Positions 4,519 through 12,382 of a stretch of DNA of 35,363 nucleotides are shown one piece after another. A model generated the notes under the pieces. It had not been told where the DNA came from. It was given only the letters and a program-made list of their open reading frames with translations, and did not search any database. The position numbers were made by a program, and so were the translations under genes. The number at the start of each line of letters is the position of its first letter. Position 1 is the stretch's first letter. The stretch comes from a virus. Location: UHGV virus genome UHGV-0299546; one strand, 5' to 3'.

Positions 4519-5070
4519 ATGAAACTCAAACCAATGAGTACACCTGGTGTGGCTCCGGCACATGTAAAACCATGGACACAGCAGGAGGATGAACTTTTAG
4601 CCACGTTATACCACACCCACACAGCGCCGGAGCTGACCAAGCACCTTCAGAGAACCGAGTCAGCAATACGAAGCCGCATTCGTCTTTTGCTCTCTCAGGG
4701 GGTTATTCACGCCAAACGCCCCCACCTGAGCACAAAAGAACTCAGCATGCTCATCAGGAATCGCCACACAAAAACTATCCGGGAACTCGCGAATGAGCTG
4801 GGGCGCTCGCCATCCACAGTGGAACTGAACCTGAGAAAAAGAGGGTATCGGTTCAGGAAATACGGGGAACTCCACCACAGAACCAGATACAGCGATCACC
4901 TGGTGGAGTTGGTAACTGAACTGCGTGATGAGAAGGGGATGACATTCAGCGAAATCAGGAAGCACATCCGGGACACAGCCGGGATATCCCTTAAAAGATG
5001 GGTCCCCGCCCGGCTTTACGCACGATATACCGCCGCTGACACCGTGCTTTGCGAACTACTACCGGACTGA
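4519..5070 (+). CDS. Hypothetical basic protein, possibly DNA-binding
   Basis: 183 aa, AAGGGAG RBS; Arg/Lys-rich with HTH-like segments (judged by eye). Confidence 0.55.
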   Translation: MKLKPMSTPGVAPAHVKPWTQQEDELLATLYHTHTAPELTKHLQRTESAIRSRIRLLLSQGVIHAKRPHLSTKELSMLIRNRHTKTIRELANELGRSPSTVELNLRKRGYRFRKYGELHHRTRYSDHLVELVTELRDEKGMTFSEIRKHIRDTAGISLKRWVPARLYARYTAADTVLCELLPD

Positions 5071-5190
5071 GTAACCACTATGTACACACAAAAAAACCGC
5101 TTGCCATGCCGCAATCAGTCAGGTTACATTTCCGCTGCACCTCATAAAACGGGTGCCGGGATTTCCACCCCGCTGACAACTACAGCGCAC

Positions 5191-5210
5191 AACCGCGCCA
5201 GCGGTTTTTT
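5191..5210 (+). terminator. Candidate intrinsic terminator
   Basis: 6-bp stem AACCGC/GCGGTT with GCCA loop (5191-5206) followed by T7 (5204-5210). Confidence 0.4.
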
Positions 5211-5229
5211 TGTGCGTACTGTATCGCCA

Positions 5230-5390
5230 CGTCTTTTTCGCACACGAATTATGGTGGGGCGTACGGGGCCGACTTCGGTCGGGCCGGGTTCTGTAGTTGC
5301 CGGTTGTGGAAACCCTGTACGTCTCACCACCCCGAGTTTTCCACCTCTGGATGGTGAGTTTTCAAAACTTGCAACTACAGAGGCCACACC
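5230..5390 (+). other. GC-rich structured non-coding region (candidate sRNA or cis-regulatory leader)
   Basis: Hairpin GGCCGAC-TTCG-GTCGGGCC at 5265-5285 (UUCG tetraloop); inverted repeats CTCACCA/TGGTGAG (5323-5329 / 5351-5357) and CTGTAGTTGC/GCAACTACAG (5291-5300 / 5371-5380), the latter adjoining the RBS of the 5391 ORF. Confidence 0.3.
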
Positions 5391-5621
5391 ATGGCAAACC
5401 GCAAACAGCACCGCGCTATCGCGGAGCGTCGTCACATCCAGACTGAAATCAACCGCAGACTTTTCCGCGCATCACGCGTCGCGCAAATCATGCACATCAA
5501 TATGCTGCATGAGCGCAGCCACGCACTATCAAACATCTATTCCGCCGCTGTTTTCAGCTATCTGGCGGATGATCTGCACGAGCTTCAACAGCTCATCCAG
5601 CAGCAAAACAAACTCCATTAA
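5391..5621 (+). CDS. Hypothetical small helical protein
   Basis: 76-aa ORF with AGAGG RBS; composition looks protein-like, unlike the overlapping 205-aa frame. Confidence 0.5.
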   Translation: MANRKQHRAIAERRHIQTEINRRLFRASRVAQIMHINMLHERSHALSNIYSAAVFSYLADDLHELQQLIQQQNKLH

Positions 5622-5693
5622 TTCCTGTTCCGGGCCTTTCCTGCACCTTGCGGCGGGAGGCCTTCGCACATCTGTAACAAGAGGATTGCCGCA

Positions 5694-6059
5694 ATGATTC
5701 TCGCCAACGACTTTCTTGAATACCTGCTCAACACAGAACGTGATCTTGCCGCTCGCGTGCGTGAACGTTATGACATGTACCTGAAATCCCTGCCTGTACC
5801 GCAGCTCGCTGACGGAAAGATTGTTATTGATGGTCGCTACATGATTGACAGCCACGAGGGAAATTACAGGCTTTACCGCATTGAAGGTGGCACCCCGTCC
5901 GTTATTGGCATTTACCAGCGCCCATCCTCTGCAATCGTCGATGTGATTGCCGACAGCATCCGCATCACACATCGCCATGCCGACACAGAAGACACCGTGC
6001 TGGAAATTCAGCGGCTGGCTACAGTCTGCCGCGACACCCTGAATGGCATGACGAAGTAA
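5694..6059 (+). CDS. Hypothetical protein upstream of A (orf83-position)
   Basis: 121-aa ORF immediately preceding the replication gene. Confidence 0.55.
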   Translation: MILANDFLEYLLNTERDLAARVRERYDMYLKSLPVPQLADGKIVIDGRYMIDSHEGNYRLYRIEGGTPSVIGIYQRPSSAIVDVIADSIRITHRHADTEDTVLEIQRLATVCRDTLNGMTK

Positions 6060-6065
6060 ATCACT

Positions 6066-8831
6066 ATGACGGCAGAGTACATCAGGGACTGGCAACAACC
6101 GCGCCACGCAGTGGGGCGTGAAGGAACGGGGATCCCCGCTCCTGAATCCGCGCTTTCCTCCTGGCTGGATGCCTACCGGGCAGAGAACGAGCGCCGCCAG
6201 GAAATGGCTGATGCGGCGTTCTCCGCCACGCCGCTGGGCAACCTGATTAATAAAAGCCTGGACGCACAGGAAAAACAGGACAAAACCATCACACTGGCAG
6301 GAGACGCCAGAAAACAGGCACGCGGCGCGGTGGATGAAGCCATGGCCTCGCTGCGCCTGCTGCCGTCCTATCTGCGCGATCCGCTTATTCGCCACCTCTC
6401 CTTCCTTCGCAAAAAACAGGAAGCCGATCGCCGGAAAGGCAAAAAGAGCTGGCAGGCGGAACGCTATGCACGCGGAACCCTGCGCAAAATATTCGAACGT
6501 CTGGATCGCACTGACGGACGCTGGCTGACACCGGGTTATCGCTCCCTTGCCGGACGCGAACGCCTGGACGATTTGCTTTACCTGCCGCAGCTCAACAAAC
6601 ACCAGATACAGACGCTGGCCACCATGACGGCGGCGATGTTCAGCAGCACCTTCGAAAAGCTCTGCGATGGCTTTGGCGCGACTGATGGCGAGCTGACCAT
6701 GGATGTAACACTGAAGGCGTATCAGATGCTGGCCCGCATGGCGTTACACCTGCACGCTATGCCTCCACATTATGACGCTCTGACAACAGACAAAGACCGG
6801 AGGAACGAACCGGACACGGAGCTGCTGCCGGGCGCAATCCTTCGCCTGACCTGTGCGGAATGGTGGAAACGCAAACTGTGGCTGTTACGTTGCGAGTGGA
6901 GAGAAGAACAACTCCGCGCCGCCTGTCTGGTTTCCAGAAAAACATCGCCCTATCTGAGTCAGGACGCATTAAGTGAATTTCGCGCACAGCGCGAGAAAAC
7001 ACGCGATTTCCTGAAAAGTTTCATGCTGGAAAATGAAGACGGGTTCACGATTGATCTCGAGACGGTGTATTACGCGGGAGTAAGTAACCCGGTCCACCGT
7101 AAGGCAGAAATGATGGCCACCATGAAAGGGCTGGAACTTCTGGCCGAAGCCCGTGGCGACAAAGCGGTGTTTCTGACTGTCACCTGCCCGTCAAAATACC
7201 ACGCAACAACGGAGAACGGTCATCCGAACCCCAAATGGAACGGGGCCACCATGCGCGACTCCAGCGATTACCTGGTTAACACGTTTTTTGCGGCGGTCCG
7301 CAAAAAACTGAACCGCGACGGTCTGCGCTGGTATGGCATCCGCACGGTGGAGCCTCACCATGACGGCACCGTGCACTGGCATATGATGGTCTTTGCACAC
7401 CCGGACGAGATTGAAACCATCGTGTCCCACGTCTGCGATATTGCCATTCAGGAAGACCGCCACGAGCTGGGCGATGACATAACTCCGCGTTTTAAGGCGG
7501 AGTACGTAGACGGCTCAAAAGGCACGCCAACCAGCTACATCGCCACCTACATCGGAAAGAACCTGGACAGCCGCGCCGTGGATGGCATCGACCCGAAAAC
7601 GGGCAAGCCACGCATTGACCACGAAACAGGTAAATCAATGGCCGAGAGCGTGGAGCGCGCCATCGGCTGGGCGCGCCTTCACCGGGTCCGCCAGTTCCAG
7701 TTCTTTGGCATTCCCTCCCGTCAGGTGTGGCGTGAACTCCGCCGCCTTGCCAGCCAGATGGCACGCAACCCGGAAGGCCCGCAACGGCTGAAGGATGACG
7801 CAATGGATGCGGTTCTTGCTGCCGCTGATGCCGGGTGTTTTGCCACCTACATTGAAAAACAGGGTGGCGTACTTGTTCCGCGCAAGGACTACCTGATTCG
7901 CACCGCCTACGACCTCGCAGATGAGCTGAACGATTACGGCGAACAAAGCGTACAGATTTACGGGATCTGGTCGCCACTCATCGGGGAATCCTCCCGTGTG
8001 TGCACGCATCCGGATAACTGGAAGCTGGTAAGACGCAAACCGGAAGCGGAAGACAGCGCCCGCGAAAATGGTTTTGACCTTCAGGGCGGCCCTGCCGCCC
8101 CTTGGACTCGTGGCAATAACTGTCCCCGTGTACAGGAAACGGACAACAACGGGACAGAACAGCAGGAAGAACGGCCAGCACTGTGGCCGCAGCTTCCTGA
8201 CGGCGTTGATGTGGATGAATGGATGCGCTCACTGAAACGGCACGAACGCCGGGCGCTGATGCGTTCGCTTCGTGACAAACAGGCAAAAAACAGCAGTGAT
8301 GAAATGCAGAGCTGGACACAGAGCCGCAAACAGCAGCGGCCTTTGCCTGATAACCACGAATTACTCGCTAAAGAATGGCGGGAATCTGCCGAATCTCTCG
8401 GCCTGCATATCGGTGAACAGCAGATGCAGCACCTGTTACGAGGCGGCAGTCTGTACGTTGACGGCAGCATCATTGCACCGCAGGGATTTGAAATTGTACG
8501 CAAACCAGATACCCGACCGGACAGCCGAATCACGCAGCTCTGGCAGCGCCTGAGCCGTAATCACGGCGTAAACAGCACGGAAATCCGCCATAACCCGGTT
8601 TCCAGCTATCTGAAACAGCTCGAGGCATCAGACCCTGAAGCCGCTGCACGCCTGGCATCCACAATTCAGCAGGACCAGAACACCATGAAAACTCCCGTTA
8701 CCGTGCTTTCTGACATGCTGCGCGCCATCCGTGACGCAGAGCACGCACAGAGAATCAATGAAACCACTGAACGCGCACGTCACAAGGCGGGTCTGTTGCA
8801 GGACAAAGGCAATAGCGAGAAGAAAAAATAA
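6066..8831 (+). CDS. A: Replication initiation protein gpA (rolling-circle HUH endonuclease)
   Basis: 921 aa; HUH-type motif TVHWHMMVF and paired catalytic tyrosines in YIATYIGK, typical of the P2 A family. Confidence 0.9.
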   Translation: MTAEYIRDWQQPRHAVGREGTGIPAPESALSSWLDAYRAENERRQEMADAAFSATPLGNLINKSLDAQEKQDKTITLAGDARKQARGAVDEAMASLRLLPSYLRDPLIRHLSFLRKKQEADRRKGKKSWQAERYARGTLRKIFERLDRTDGRWLTPGYRSLAGRERLDDLLYLPQLNKHQIQTLATMTAAMFSSTFEKLCDGFGATDGELTMDVTLKAYQMLARMALHLHAMPPHYDALTTDKDRRNEPDTELLPGAILRLTCAEWWKRKLWLLRCEWREEQLRAACLVSRKTSPYLSQDALSEFRAQREKTRDFLKSFMLENEDGFTIDLETVYYAGVSNPVHRKAEMMATMKGLELLAEARGDKAVFLTVTCPSKYHATTENGHPNPKWNGATMRDSSDYLVNTFFAAVRKKLNRDGLRWYGIRTVEPHHDGTVHWHMMVFAHPDEIETIVSHVCDIAIQEDRHELGDDITPRFKAEYVDGSKGTPTSYIATYIGKNLDSRAVDGIDPKTGKPRIDHETGKSMAESVERAIGWARLHRVRQFQFFGIPSRQVWRELRRLASQMARNPEGPQRLKDDAMDAVLAAADAGCFATYIEKQGGVLVPRKDYLIRTAYDLADELNDYGEQSVQIYGIWSPLIGESSRVCTHPDNWKLVRRKPEAEDSARENGFDLQGGPAAPWTRGNNCPRVQETDNNGTEQQEERPALWPQLPDGVDVDEWMRSLKRHERRALMRSLRDKQAKNSSDEMQSWTQSRKQQRPLPDNHELLAKEWRESAESLGLHIGEQQMQHLLRGGSLYVDGSIIAPQGFEIVRKPDTRPDSRITQLWQRLSRNHGVNSTEIRHNPVSSYLKQLEASDPEAAARLASTIQQDQNTMKTPVTVLSDMLRAIRDAEHAQRINETTERARHKAGLLQDKGNSEKKK

Positions 8832-9011: not shown

Positions 9012-10133
9012 ATGGGCGACTTAGGTGGTATTCAGTCAGATTTAGCCCAACTAGTTAGACTGGTAATAACTGAACAGTATGATGACGTTCGGTTATATGT
9101 CGCTCGCTTGGTGCGTAAATATCGGGAAACTATGCCTGCTCTATCCGAGCAGCTTGATCTTTATCTACGAAATAAACCGCAAAAGCCTGCACAAAGCCTG
9201 CGTAAGGTTACCGCACCAAAACAAGCGCTGCCTCAAACCATGCCTGTGGACGAGGAGTCAAGGCTTACCTTGCTTAAAGCACCAAATGAAAAGATTGTGA
9301 GCAAACCTCTACTGTCCAGTCAGATAGAAGACTCACTGGATCAAATTATTCTTGAGCGGAAGCACATCGATCGCCTCAAGACTCTCGGCTTACAACCAAC
9401 ACGCTCTGCCATTTTTGTTGGCCCTCCGGGTGTAGGTAAAACACTTACGGCAAGCTGGTTGGCTCAGAAATTAGGGGTTCCTTTTTACGTTCTTGATTTA
9501 ACGGCAGTAATGAGCAGCTATCTGGGCAAAAGCGGAAATAACCTTCGGGCAGCTCTAGATTTTGCGAAGAAAGGGCCGTGCGTTCTTCTGTTAGATGAAA
9601 TTGATTCAATCGCCAAAAAGAGAAGTGATGATTCTGATGTTGGAGAATTAAAAAGACTTGTTACCGTGATACTCCAGGAGGTTGACGAATGGCCGTCTTC
9701 TAGTTTGCTACTTGCTGCAACTAACTTCGCTGAGTTGATTGATCCAGCACTATGGAGACGTTTTGATTTAGTGCTCAATTTTGAGAAGCCAGATAGCGAA
9801 AGTATTAAAGAAGCAATTAAACGCTTTTCAGGTCCCGACTACGCGATTTTTGCACGTTGGATAGATCTACTGGCTATTATGTTCAAAAATGAATCTTTTA
9901 GTAATATTGAGCGTTCTATCAACAAATTCCGACGTTCGGTCGCTTTAGGTATTTCCTCAGATGAAGAGTTGATTGGGTCGTTCATTAAAGATGGTTTATC
10001 AGAATTAGACAGGAATGAACGTAAAGAAATTGCAGTTACTCTAAAAAGAAATTCTAAATTATCCCAGCATGCCATATCAGACTTAACCGGAGTCAGTAGG
10101 GATACAATTAGAAAATACAGTCAAAAAATGTAA
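9012..10133 (+). CDS. AAA+ ATPase with C-terminal HTH-like tail (IetA-like?); first gene of hotspot cargo
   Basis: Walker A GPPGVGKT (nt 9420-9443), Walker B VLLLDEID, sensor AATN; AT-rich relative to flanking phage genes; AAGAGG RBS. Confidence 0.85.
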   Translation: MGDLGGIQSDLAQLVRLVITEQYDDVRLYVARLVRKYRETMPALSEQLDLYLRNKPQKPAQSLRKVTAPKQALPQTMPVDEESRLTLLKAPNEKIVSKPLLSSQIEDSLDQIILERKHIDRLKTLGLQPTRSAIFVGPPGVGKTLTASWLAQKLGVPFYVLDLTAVMSSYLGKSGNNLRAALDFAKKGPCVLLLDEIDSIAKKRSDDSDVGELKRLVTVILQEVDEWPSSSLLLAATNFAELIDPALWRRFDLVLNFEKPDSESIKEAIKRFSGPDYAIFARWIDLLAIMFKNESFSNIERSINKFRRSVALGISSDEELIGSFIKDGLSELDRNERKEIAVTLKRNSKLSQHAISDLTGVSRDTIRKYSQKM

Positions 10134-10156
10134 TACAGCATAGATAAGGAGTATGT

Positions 10157-12382
10157 ATGGCGAAAACTAATTTTCTGATTGGACGCGGCGAATTATTAAC
10201 CAGCGATATTCCTGGTCCTAAAAGAGTGCCCGGAAAAGCTGAGGTTTATTCTCTTTACGAATCGAAACAACGTTTATTGCCGCAAATTGCATCTACTATA
10301 GAAAATTTTGATGATTTACCCAGTCAGGCATGTCCTTATGATTATGCTGTGGCTAAGTTGACGTTGAATCCGAGCTATATTGCACGCTCTTTTTTTCCTG
10401 CAAAAATGCTTAAGTCTACCGGGTTAACGTCTATTGGCAGCAGGACGGTAAAAATTACGCCTCAAAGCTGGAAGCGAAAAGTTACTGTGTCAGAAGTAAC
10501 TACGACACAAATGTTTGTTGCTGGTAAAAGAGAATCCTTCAAAGAGTTACCTCATTGGGTGTCAGGACTCAAAGAGTTTTCTGACGAAGCGATTGATTTT
10601 GCACGCATAGAACGGTTCGATGCCTATTTACCCGAAGAGCGTATTATTACCATTGGTGAGCAGGATTCTTCGTATTTTGAGGTTGGTGTTCATTTACTGC
10701 CAGATAATGAACAAGACTTGGTTCAGCAACAATTTGTTCAGTTTGCATCAAATTTGAACATCAAAGTACATACTTCATTAGCTTTTACCGCTGGTACATT
10801 ATGGTTCGTGCCAATCCAGGCCGATAGAATTACTATTAGTAAGCTTGCGAAATTTACATTTGTACGAGTCATAAGACCGGTTCCAAGATTGCGTGGGATT
10901 AGACCAATACAAAGGAACTACGGTCCTTTAGCTCAGTGTAAATTGCCTGCTGAGGGCCCCGTATCTTCAGAAATAAAAGTTGCGATTCTTGATGGTGGTT
11001 TACCATCAGAGCACGCTATATCGCCATGGTTAAAATCCTATAGAGTTTTGGACGATCATGCAGAGGATGATCCAGACGGTTTAGAGCATGGTTTAGCTGT
11101 GTCTTCAGCCTTTTTATTTGGACCAATAAGTAATAAATCGGAAGCGAAAAGACCATACTCTTATATTGATAACTTAAGAGTTTTGGACAACAAGACCTGC
11201 CAAGAAGATCCGCTGGAACTATATCGAACTTTGGGCTTTATTGAAGAGGTATTGTTGTCTCGCCAGTATCAGTTTATCAATCTAAGTTTAGGTCCAGACC
11301 TACCAATTGAAGATACGGAAGTTCATGCATGGACTTCCGTTATTGATGATTTGTTAAGTGATGGTGAAACATTAATGACTGTTGCTGTTGGCAACAATGG
11401 AGAAATGGATCGCAAGTCTGGTAATGCAAGAATTCAAGTACCAGCCGATTGCGTTAATGCTCTTGCTGTTGGTGCTTGTGATACAGTTAATGATACGGAA
11501 TGGAAACGAGCACCATATAGCGCCATTGGGCCAGGCAGAAGTCCTGGCGTGATGAAACCGGATTTAGTTGCGTTTGGTGGTGACACAGACGAGTACTTTC
11601 ATGTTTTAGGTAAAGGTAAGAAGCCTGTAATCATACCCCAGCTAGGAACAAGCTTTGCCTCTCCTTACGCCTTACGAGCAGCTGTTGGTGTTCGGGCAAT
11701 TTTAGGGAACGATTTGAGCCTACTAGCAATCAAAGCTTTGTTAATTCATGCGTCAAAACAGCTTGATCATCCTTGTACAGAAGTTGGCTGGGGAAAACTT
11801 CCTGAAGACTTGAACGACATTATAGTCAGCCCTGATGGTGTTGCCCGTATCGTCTACCAAGGTGAATTGAAACCAGGAAAATACTTACGCGCTCCTCTTC
11901 CAATACCTGAAGGTGGCTTGAAAGGTAGAATAAACTTAGCGGCAACTTTCTGTTATGCAACAACCACTGATCCACAAGACCCAGCTTCCTATACAAAAGC
12001 TGGTTTGGAAGTGACATTCCGGCCAAATGATTCAAAAATCAAAGACGGAAAACAAAATGCTGAAACCAAGGGATTCTTTGAACTGGCCAAATATTCAACT
12101 GAAAGTGAGCGACGTTCTGACATGGGCAAATGGGAGACCGTCTTACATAATTCGAAGAACATGCTAGGTTCAACTCTAAAAAATCCTGTATTTGACATTC
12201 ATTATAACGCTCGTGAGGCCGGTGCAAGCATAGCCAGCCATAAGGCAGAAAAAATCAAGTATGCTCTTATAATTACCATTAAGGCATCAAAGCACCAAGA
12301 CCTGTATAACGAAATTTTACGTACTTATAATCAGGTGCTCGTGCCAATTCAACCGCAAACATCAATTCCTATTCGTTCGTAA
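10157..12382 (+). CDS. Subtilisin-like serine protease, peptidase S8 family, with ~265-aa N-terminal domain of unknown function (IetS-like?)
   Basis: Catalytic triad motifs in D-H-S order: VAILD279GG (nt 10991-10993), EH311GLAVSS, GTS499FASP (nt 11651-11653); oxyanion VGNNGE; AAGGAG RBS; 23 bp after the ATPase stop. Confidence 0.88.
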   Translation: MAKTNFLIGRGELLTSDIPGPKRVPGKAEVYSLYESKQRLLPQIASTIENFDDLPSQACPYDYAVAKLTLNPSYIARSFFPAKMLKSTGLTSIGSRTVKITPQSWKRKVTVSEVTTTQMFVAGKRESFKELPHWVSGLKEFSDEAIDFARIERFDAYLPEERIITIGEQDSSYFEVGVHLLPDNEQDLVQQQFVQFASNLNIKVHTSLAFTAGTLWFVPIQADRITISKLAKFTFVRVIRPVPRLRGIRPIQRNYGPLAQCKLPAEGPVSSEIKVAILDGGLPSEHAISPWLKSYRVLDDHAEDDPDGLEHGLAVSSAFLFGPISNKSEAKRPYSYIDNLRVLDNKTCQEDPLELYRTLGFIEEVLLSRQYQFINLSLGPDLPIEDTEVHAWTSVIDDLLSDGETLMTVAVGNNGEMDRKSGNARIQVPADCVNALAVGACDTVNDTEWKRAPYSAIGPGRSPGVMKPDLVAFGGDTDEYFHVLGKGKKPVIIPQLGTSFASPYALRAAVGVRAILGNDLSLLAIKALLIHASKQLDHPCTEVGWGKLPEDLNDIIVSPDGVARIVYQGELKPGKYLRAPLPIPEGGLKGRINLAATFCYATTTDPQDPASYTKAGLEVTFRPNDSKIKDGKQNAETKGFFELAKYSTESERRSDMGKWETVLHNSKNMLGSTLKNPVFDIHYNAREAGASIASHKAEKIKYALIITIKASKHQDLYNEILRTYNQVLVPIQPQTSIPIRS

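Follow-up and report, generated by a model that had tools for sequence, protein, structure and literature searches.

The closest described relatives of the locus examined here, positions 5071-5390 of the virus genome UHGV-0299546 (35,363 bases, hereafter the window), are the RNA immunity systems of phages P1/P7 and P4 and the isrK locus of Gifsy-1. For P1, Citron and Schuster reportedly described in 1990 a scheme of short matched elements, a1b1/a'b'/a2b2, and the Rfam family of C4 RNAs is founded on P1/P7. In P4, the seqA region is required for termination, and epsilon is the protein by which P4 derepresses helpers of the P2 type. C4 represses ant in P1 (PMC8198154) and, according to work cited in PMC4919922, the C4 of P1/P7 is cut out of a longer transcript by RNase P and serves in trans as an immunity factor. 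The CI of P4 is a processed RNA (PMC4825925). The study that states this compares the IsrK locus of Gifsy-1 explicitly with CI, seqA and seqC of P4: isrK has its own promoter and a terminator that is read through, a processed RNA of ~80 nucleotides (nt), STnc1160, and an anti-repressor gene lie downstream, the long form of IsrK is translationally silent, the short form activates translation of the downstream ORF in trans, and this activation and binding by Hfq are shown there only (PMC4825925).

The gap at 5071-5390 is bounded by the stop codon of an open reading frame (ORF) for a helix-turn-helix protein of 183 amino acids (aa; 4519-5070) and by the ATG of a 76-aa ORF. Taken as a whole, we consider it, with a probability of roughly 0.82, to be a P4/P1-type RNA immunity module that lies in the early operon and represses the translation of an epsilon-like gene by an antisense RNA. 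Judged from its sequence, the window is a P2-like, phage P88-like Peduoviridae prophage. Besides gpA and Cox, it encodes an integrase, a C repressor and a portal protein. Over 5087-5700 it matches Escherichia phage P88 (Peduoviridae, Xuanwuvirus) with 100% identity, and similar sequence is present at 1364 places in 1179 of 5426 complete E. coli genomes.

Two RNA families in the gap

When the whole window was compared with Rfam, exactly two families scored above their gathering cut-offs, isrK and C4, both of them in the gap and on the plus strand only (Table 1). Each match is full-length (model positions 1-77 of 77 for isrK, 1-87 of 87 for C4), and C4 starts 35 nt past the end of IsrK. The IsrK segment folds into two hairpins, a linker and an intrinsic terminator (z = -3.5). 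In C4, an outer stem of 17 base pairs (5252-5268 with 5313-5329) surrounds hairpin 1 (5269-5282, with a UUCG loop) and hairpin 2 (5283-5304, with a loop of 12 nt), and this structure, the Rfam consensus, is what both the minimum-energy fold (-45.3 kcal/mol, z = -3.4) and the centroid give. Two other families, IMPDH and anti-hemB, gave scores far under their cut-offs and were set aside as chance matches. ARAGORN found neither a tRNA nor a tmRNA in the window.

Table 1. Features of the gap and of the operon that follows it (positions are those of the window).
Feature	Position	Strand	Details
205-aa open frame ('Ash'/eta-like)	5080-5697	+	begins before the IsrK promoter and crosses both RNA genes
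23-nt inverted repeat, 5' arm	5082-5104	+	upstream of and overlapping the -35 hexamer; partner 5197-5219; 91% complementary
Predicted sigma-70 promoter of IsrK	5101-5130	+	TTGCCA, 18-nt spacer, TACATT; predicted start ~5137
IsrK-family small RNA	5137-5211	+	counterpart of P4 seqA region and P1 a1b1; Rfam RF01394, 63.6 bits, cut-off 50
a1	5162-5168	+	UUUCCAC; loop of IsrK hairpin 2; complementary to a'
b1	5177-5185	+	CAACUACAG; IsrK linker; complementary to b'
IsrK intrinsic terminator	5191-5211	+	6-bp stem, GCCA loop, U7 tract
C4/CI-type antisense RNA	5247-5334	+	Rfam RF01695, 80.5 bits, cut-off 45
b'	5290-5299	+	UCUGUAGUUG; 12-nt loop of C4 hairpin 2; specificity element
a'	5306-5312	+	GUGGAAA; single-stranded C4 junction after hairpin 2; second specificity element
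a2	5338-5344	+	UUUCCAC; downstream target of a'
b2	5372-5381	+	CAACUACAGA; downstream target of b'; overlaps Shine-Dalgarno GAGG 5380-5383
First gene downstream, predicted to be regulated; 76-aa homologue of P4 epsilon 'derepression' (anti-repressor) protein	5391-5621	+	Pfam PF25738 Derepression, 31.8 bits, cut-off 27
orf121	5694-6059	+	operon gene downstream; possible polarity target
Replication initiator gpA	6066-8831	+	Phage_GPA, E = 6.5e-130; possible polarity target

The predicted IsrK promoter is the sole sigma-70-like site in 4800-5800, and its last base precedes the isrK match by 7 nt. We compared it across 16 distinct P88-type modules from viral contigs (alignment A1, the relatives referred to below): TTGCC of the -35 hexamer and GGTTACATT, which includes the whole -10 hexamer, are invariant, and the spacer has been replaced in four. 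The upstream RNA also shows further traits of the IsrK family, a predicted promoter, a Rho-independent terminator and a position directly upstream of a C4-type RNA. The sole LexA-box-like site found (CTGT-N8-ACAG) lies at 8120, inside gpA, at chance level, and gives the IsrK promoter no link to the SOS response.

Part of this structure had been read correctly in the original prediction, a short note on the sequence of the gap. The terminator-like hairpin that it described is present at 5191-5206 (AACCGC-GCCA-GCGGTT) with seven T at 5205-5211, and so is its UUCG-tetraloop hairpin (CCGAC-UUCG-GUCGG, 5269-5282). 'GC-rich' is apt for the C4 part alone (62.5% G+C) and weak for the gap, which has 54.1% against 51.8% in the window. 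The note had offered three interpretations, a small RNA, a leader that sequesters the ribosome-binding site of the 5391 ORF, and iteron-like sites bound by a protein. The first two hold side by side: the gap encodes small RNAs, isrK and C4, and their loops are complementary to sequence that abuts this ribosome-binding site. The third does not stand, for reasons given with the co-variation below, and neither the two known RNA families nor the scheme to which the repeats belong had been recognised. Of the checks that it had proposed, an Rfam scan and folding with covariation across relatives yielded the two families over their gathering scores, both in the gap, and paired regions that are conserved with compensatory changes.

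Database records have the region otherwise. In the GenBank record of P88 (KP063541), the minus strand of 5033-5221, which corresponds to window positions 5142-5330, carries a 'hypothetical protein' opposite both RNA genes, and this protein is very likely spurious.

The gene immediately downstream resembles P4 epsilon in BLASTP as well as by its Pfam match (29% identity, E = 2e-8). Farther along the operon, orf121 has no significant similarity to P4 orf151.

Recognition elements, co-variation and a proposed mechanism

On sequence grounds, we identify the three copies of CAACTACAG in the gap as the b1/b'/b2 elements of the classic phage P1/P4 antisense immunity scheme. As the original prediction had stated, CAACTACAG stands at 5177-5185 and again at 5372-5380, with its reverse complement at 5291-5299. 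Counted together with its complement, it occurs three times in the 35,363 bases, always in the gap, and shuffled sequences had 0.18 occurrences on average (1 of 100 reached three). The nested inverted repeat was found as described (5290-5313 with 5358-5381, and GTGGAAA at 5306-5312 with TTTCCAC at 5338-5344), its outer arm ending on the Shine-Dalgarno sequence GAGG (5380-5383), 7 nt before the ATG at 5391. A second repeat set was overlooked there and came out of a repeat finder: TTTCCAC at 5162-5168 and 5338-5344, with its complement at 5306-5312. C4 is perfectly complementary to the downstream target over 10 nt (b'/b2) and 7 nt (a'/a2), and its elements a' and b' are also exactly complementary to a1 and b1 inside IsrK. 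The order a1 b1 b' a' a2 b2 fits an antiparallel pairing of C4 with the upstream pair and with the downstream pair alike.

These complementarities are kept while the sequences change. Among the 16 relatives there are 5 types of a and 11 types of b, in 14 combinations, and in every sequence all three copies match. For b'-b2 and a'-a2 taken together, 98.9% of the alignment cells hold standard pairs and 11 of 17 pairs have changed on both sides; with the partner slid along the sequence, pairing falls to 42-51%. For a1-a' and b1-b', every cell (100%) is paired and compensatory changes affect 11 of 16 pairs, against 28-53% of cells paired after sliding. For both sets of interactions, none of 500 shuffles reached the observed values of cells paired, of pairs and cells changed on both sides, or of the covariation score.

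The same data bear on another reading, in which a protein binds the repeats as iteron-like or operator-like sites in DNA, at a replication origin for instance. In its favour, a 9-mer stands three times within 200 base pairs, close to replication genes. We give this reading hardly any credence: two copies are direct and one inverted, all at fixed places relative to the RNA helices and not in a tandem array, the downstream copy always abuts a Shine-Dalgarno sequence and a start codon, and the covariance-model matches are strand-specific. What co-variation preserves is complementarity, including G:U pairs, which would be mismatches at the DNA level; the few G:U pairs in the a and b interactions fit pairing between RNAs and not DNA sites.

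Within alignment A1, two modules may share a b-type and differ in their a-types, for example L143/L161, L139/L194 and L174/L230. Since the sites are interleaved (a1 b1 b' a' a2 b2), such re-assortment between similar modules points to repeated, coordinated replacement of three copies.

The pairing scheme extends well beyond the P88-type modules. We assembled a wider set of 240 loci by a pattern scan of viral contigs and of one genome per species, which contained 107 distinct hairpin-2 loops. A perfect complement of at least 8 nt to the locus's own loop was found upstream in 45% and downstream in 53%, compared with 1.5% and 2.0% when the loops of other loci were used. The downstream copy lies 21-33 nt past C4 and runs into the Shine-Dalgarno sequence and ATG. 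In loci from Enterobacterales, Pseudomonas, Burkholderia, Ralstonia and others, the 7-nt junction element a' is matched by perfect complements (at least 7 nt) next to b1 and again between C4 and b2 in 48 of 49 cases (controls, 1-2%). One viral contig (L148) carries the C4 core pattern twice on the same strand, at 7265-7304 and 9895-9934, 2.6 kb apart.

By analogy with the described systems, the module would work as follows. In a lysogen, the promoter would make IsrK, and read-through past the IsrK terminator would give a precursor from which C4 is cut out, at its 5' end by RNase P if P1 is a guide. C4, either in trans or in cis within the unprocessed leader, would pair with a2 and b2 and block ribosome binding at 5391; the untranslated RNA would then be terminated early, as in the antisense- and Rho-dependent termination expected of a P4-type operon. 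As a result, none of the epsilon-like protein, orf121 and gpA would be made, whether in the lysogen or from a superinfecting phage with a matching a/b type. The a1 and b1 elements of IsrK would compete for the elements of C4, which could make IsrK a decoy or activator (as the short IsrK in Gifsy-1) or a second target site (as seqA in P4). Transcripts from an early promoter upstream would probably not be blocked, either since ribosomes translate them through the region, since the IsrK terminator is masked in them, or for both reasons. The most likely mechanism is an antisense block on translation of the epsilon-like gene, which possibly reaches the replication genes, with IsrK in the role of a decoy or an activator. 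Regulation of orf121 and gpA by polarity is what P1, the statement on P4 in PMC4825925 and other P4 literature would suggest. We are less sure of polarity on gpA and of the sign of the IsrK effect than of the module explanation as a whole.

A simpler variant dispenses with a stable trans-acting RNA: as the unprocessed transcript folds, the ribosome-binding site of 5391 would be hidden in cis by the loop and junction of C4. Folding of the leader is compatible with this: in the minimum-energy structure of 5137-5400, b2 and the Shine-Dalgarno sequence pair with these two parts of C4 (5290-5313 with 5358-5381, z = -4.3), and 'structure A' of Gifsy-1 is likewise an intramolecular, inactive fold. 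We nonetheless find a leader that acts in cis only improbable. The Rfam family keeps the closed 17-bp outer stem, with its tRNA-like 3' end, as a separate unit, a processed RNA of ~80 nt accumulates in P1, P4 and Gifsy-1, and there would be no need for a separate upstream copy of a1 and b1 on a terminated small RNA of its own.

Several points weigh against the antisense immunity module as we propose it. The promoter, the read-through, the cleavage by RNase P and the action in trans are carried over to this phage by analogy. The role of the upstream copy is ambiguous, as the precedents include an activator (short IsrK in Gifsy-1) and a target for termination (seqA in P4). As the window lacks kil and has a P2-type gpA and not the alpha primase of P4, polarity on gpA is an extrapolation. 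The loci in which co-variation was seen were in part pre-selected by a sequence pattern and by a filter on outer-stem folding, and many are related; the comparison of own with other loops and the sliding of partners are unaffected by this selection. Finally, a long frame across the region seems to be selected to stay open, which means that the region is not simply 'non-coding'.

An open frame across the RNA genes and a predicted long-range helix

This frame, of 205 aa, runs on through the epsilon-like gene in another frame, and its TGA (5695-5697) overlaps the ATG of orf121 at 5694 (ATGA). It passes the Pfam model Phage_ASH (PF10554) marginally, with 27.2 bits against a cut-off of 26. RefSeq labels the equivalent stretch a truncated 'ash family protein' pseudogene. 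The 'cI protein' of the equivalent frame in P4 was later shown to be RNA. The Pfam match, the RefSeq label and the fact that the frame is open in 16 of 16 relatives would all agree with an ordinary gene for an Ash family protein in place of an RNA locus, which we regard as very improbable. The match, at residues 16-107, covers exactly both RNA genes (nt 5125-5400), both covariance models are far over their cut-offs, and the changes among relatives are coordinated triplets that keep RNA pairing. Codon periodicity is absent, with 21, 24 and 20 variable columns at codon positions 1, 2 and 3 of 5251-5390. In 10 comparisons of relatives over the part shared with the epsilon-like gene, the frame had a lower amino-acid identity than the epsilon frame in 7 and the same identity in 3, and never a higher one than the third frame, which contains stops. 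The original prediction had seen no credible ORF in the gap and had named a conserved coding frame as evidence that would refute it; we do find one frame that stays open and marginally passes Phage_ASH, but neither the amino-acid conservation nor the codon periodicity of an evolving protein.

Positions 1-98 of the 107 in the Phage_ASH model align to the translated IsrK and C4 RNA genes. An alignment of this model to RNA genes suggests that much of the Pfam family may be RNA genes read as protein.

The openness of the frame calls for comment in its own right. In 23 loci in which the first gene after C4 is in another frame, the long frame is open across the whole of that gene in 16, where 1.7 are expected from synonymous resampling; for the other alternative frame the count is 1 and the expectation 0.84. 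The frame followed in the window and in the loci L131-L348 begins at an AUGG that is conserved where C4 starts. In most lineages its stop overlaps the start of the next gene or lies directly beside it, as ATGA in L195, L217, L144 and L199 and as ATGnnTAA in L136, L204 and L348. In the diverged relatives L195 (6001-6156) and L217 (6282-6437), orf121 is absent, and the frame ends with ATGA on the start of an ORF of 830-835 aa at the position of the replication gene.

We take seriously, with less than even confidence, that the 205-aa frame is also translated, for regulation: ribosomes that start upstream of the IsrK promoter, on early-operon transcripts only, would read on through both RNA genes and the epsilon-like gene as far as the start codon of orf121 and thereby overcome the RNA block. 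Forti et al. are said to have reported in 1999 that, in the nested eta and kil genes of P4, translation prevents immunity-specific termination. These genes are presumably the 65-aa kil itself and a P4 ORF of 214 aa that shares its frame and has its start upstream of the promoter. The orf45 of Gifsy-1, at the same place, is translated, and coupling to the anti-repressor gene anrP depends on it (PMC4825925). Together with these precedents, regulatory translation would explain why the frame is open in all relatives and in 16 of the 23 loci, and why its stop meets the next start so often. It sits less well with the sequence around the starts, since there is no Shine-Dalgarno sequence before the ATG at 5080 or that at 5251 and the upstream in-frame ATG is missing in two relatives. 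Nor does it sit well with an amino-acid identity no higher than that of the stop-containing frame, with variable columns spread evenly over codon positions or with the RefSeq label of a truncated pseudogene, and the loci are phylogenetically related, so that the counts overstate their independence. If true, it would couple translation to the replication genes, and it would complement the antisense module without replacing it.

A second element could link sequence upstream of and within the IsrK promoter to the IsrK terminator. The 3' arm of the 23-nt inverted repeat (5197-5219) covers the 3' half of the IsrK terminator, its U tract and a few more bases, and in the minimum-energy fold of an RNA spanning 5071-5225 the long-range helix displaces the terminator (z = -6.0). 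The consensus fold of the 16 relatives retains the helix, with two compensatory pairs, in L195/L217. It was not seen in the sequence of P4, the only place outside the P88-type relatives where it was looked for. The 5' arm is carried only by transcripts that start upstream of the IsrK promoter; transcripts from 5137 are without it. From these folds, the helix 5082-5104/5197-5219 could be a promoter-specific antiterminator. Alternatively, the A tract may simply be an UP element.

Since the open frame and the helix both exist only in transcripts from upstream of the IsrK promoter, the module may test where a transcript originates. Early (lytic) transcripts that started upstream would be translated and antiterminated through the region, and those from the IsrK promoter would be processed to IsrK and C4 and blocked. 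We offer this as a doubtful proposal. Were it true, the part that concerns the open frame and its stop would be general to C4 modules, and Pfam 'Ash' would be a frame that is translated over RNA genes and unconstrained in sequence. What deserves follow-up in this locus is its conserved open frame, together with the possible antiterminator.

The prophage and its module compared with P1/P7, Gifsy-1 and P4

The two RNA families, the recognition by two elements and the architectures of P4 and Gifsy-1 are already described. New are (i), an instance that is unannotated or misannotated in a common P88-like prophage; (ii), the direct targeting of an epsilon homologue in a phage of the helper type; and (iii), the documented re-assortment of a and b. 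The annotation is thereby corrected for a region of a very common E. coli prophage that now stands as unannotated, as a hypothetical protein on the wrong strand or as an 'ash family protein' pseudogene. In functional terms, a P4-type RNA switch inside a complete P2-like phage would directly gate a homologue of the P4 anti-repressor epsilon. P2-type C repressors are not known to be cleaved in the SOS response. Yet P88 is inducible by mitomycin C (PMC5285337), which makes the module a candidate switch for induction or commitment. Through it, helper phages might also engage in cross-talk with satellites, and the many re-assorted types of a and b, each with its three copies matched, would amount to a natural library of orthogonal RNA-RNA specificities.

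The surroundings of the module are mosaic. Identity to P88 is 100% only from 5087 rightwards, which places a junction at ~5081-5087, and the RNA module with its own promoter acts as the left boundary of a conserved block. Upstream of this junction the window has the gene for the 183-aa helix-turn-helix protein and P88 one for an SPFH-domain protein. In a PADLOC search of the neighbours, the helix-turn-helix protein gave only weak CasR-like matches and orf121 none. The two genes between gpA and the portal gene (9012-12382) match IetA, an AAA ATPase (E = 1e-77), and IetS, a subtilase (E = 7e-52), the proteins of the Ietas anti-phage defence system; they look like defence cargo in a hotspot of the P2 type, and P88 has other genes at this position.

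With P1/P7, the likeness is to the immI region as described: a' and b' face a2 and b2 at the ribosome-binding site of icd-ant, there is an upstream copy of a1 and b1, and an anti-repressor lies downstream. P1/P7 differ in that icd is placed before ant and in that the operon is also under the C1 repressor.

Gifsy-1, again by description, shares the IsrK promoter, the leaky terminator, an RNA of ~80 nt downstream and an anti-repressor gene, and the start of its orf45 corresponds in relative place to the AUG at the 5' end of C4. It differs in being lambdoid, in that its authors do not treat STnc1160 as a repressor and in the length of orf45 (45 codons, compared with 148-205 here). A lambdoid Stx2a phage (L002) has the same tandem of isrK and C4, with 76% identity over 5138-5369. 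An ALIL pseudoknot, a frameshift element of the IS3 family (120.9 bits), lies on the minus strand of that phage at 6066-6182, ~1.9 kb from the isrK-C4 pair.

In P4, both Rfam families recur, in an unchanged order and with similar spacing: isrK at 8692-8615, which is the seqA region, and C4 at 8507-8420, the CI RNA, with kil and then epsilon following. The P4 immunity region as a whole reads PLE, seqA, CI RNA/seqB, seqC, kil/eta, epsilon and alpha. The loop of P4 CI, CCUGUGAA, is complementary to UUCACAGG upstream (seqA) and to UUCACAGGA next to the kil Shine-Dalgarno sequence (seqC), and its junction UUCUCAC is complementary to GUGAGAA on both sides; as in the window, the downstream target abuts the Shine-Dalgarno sequence of the first gene. 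A long ORF runs from upstream of the promoter through the RNAs in both, and an epsilon homologue lies downstream in the window, as expected of a P4-type operon. There are a number of differences: (i), the window holds no satellite but a complete P2-like phage that has a C repressor and Cox of its own; (ii), kil is absent, the RNA would target the epsilon-like gene directly, and the long ORF and the first gene are in different frames, whereas the 214-aa ORF of P4 is in frame with the 65-aa kil; (iii), the replication gene is a P2-type gpA and not the alpha primase, and the sequences of a and b differ. With an epsilon homologue as its first gene and a Phage_GPA replication gene farther on, the window is thus not a P4-like satellite but a phage that carries a P4-like module.

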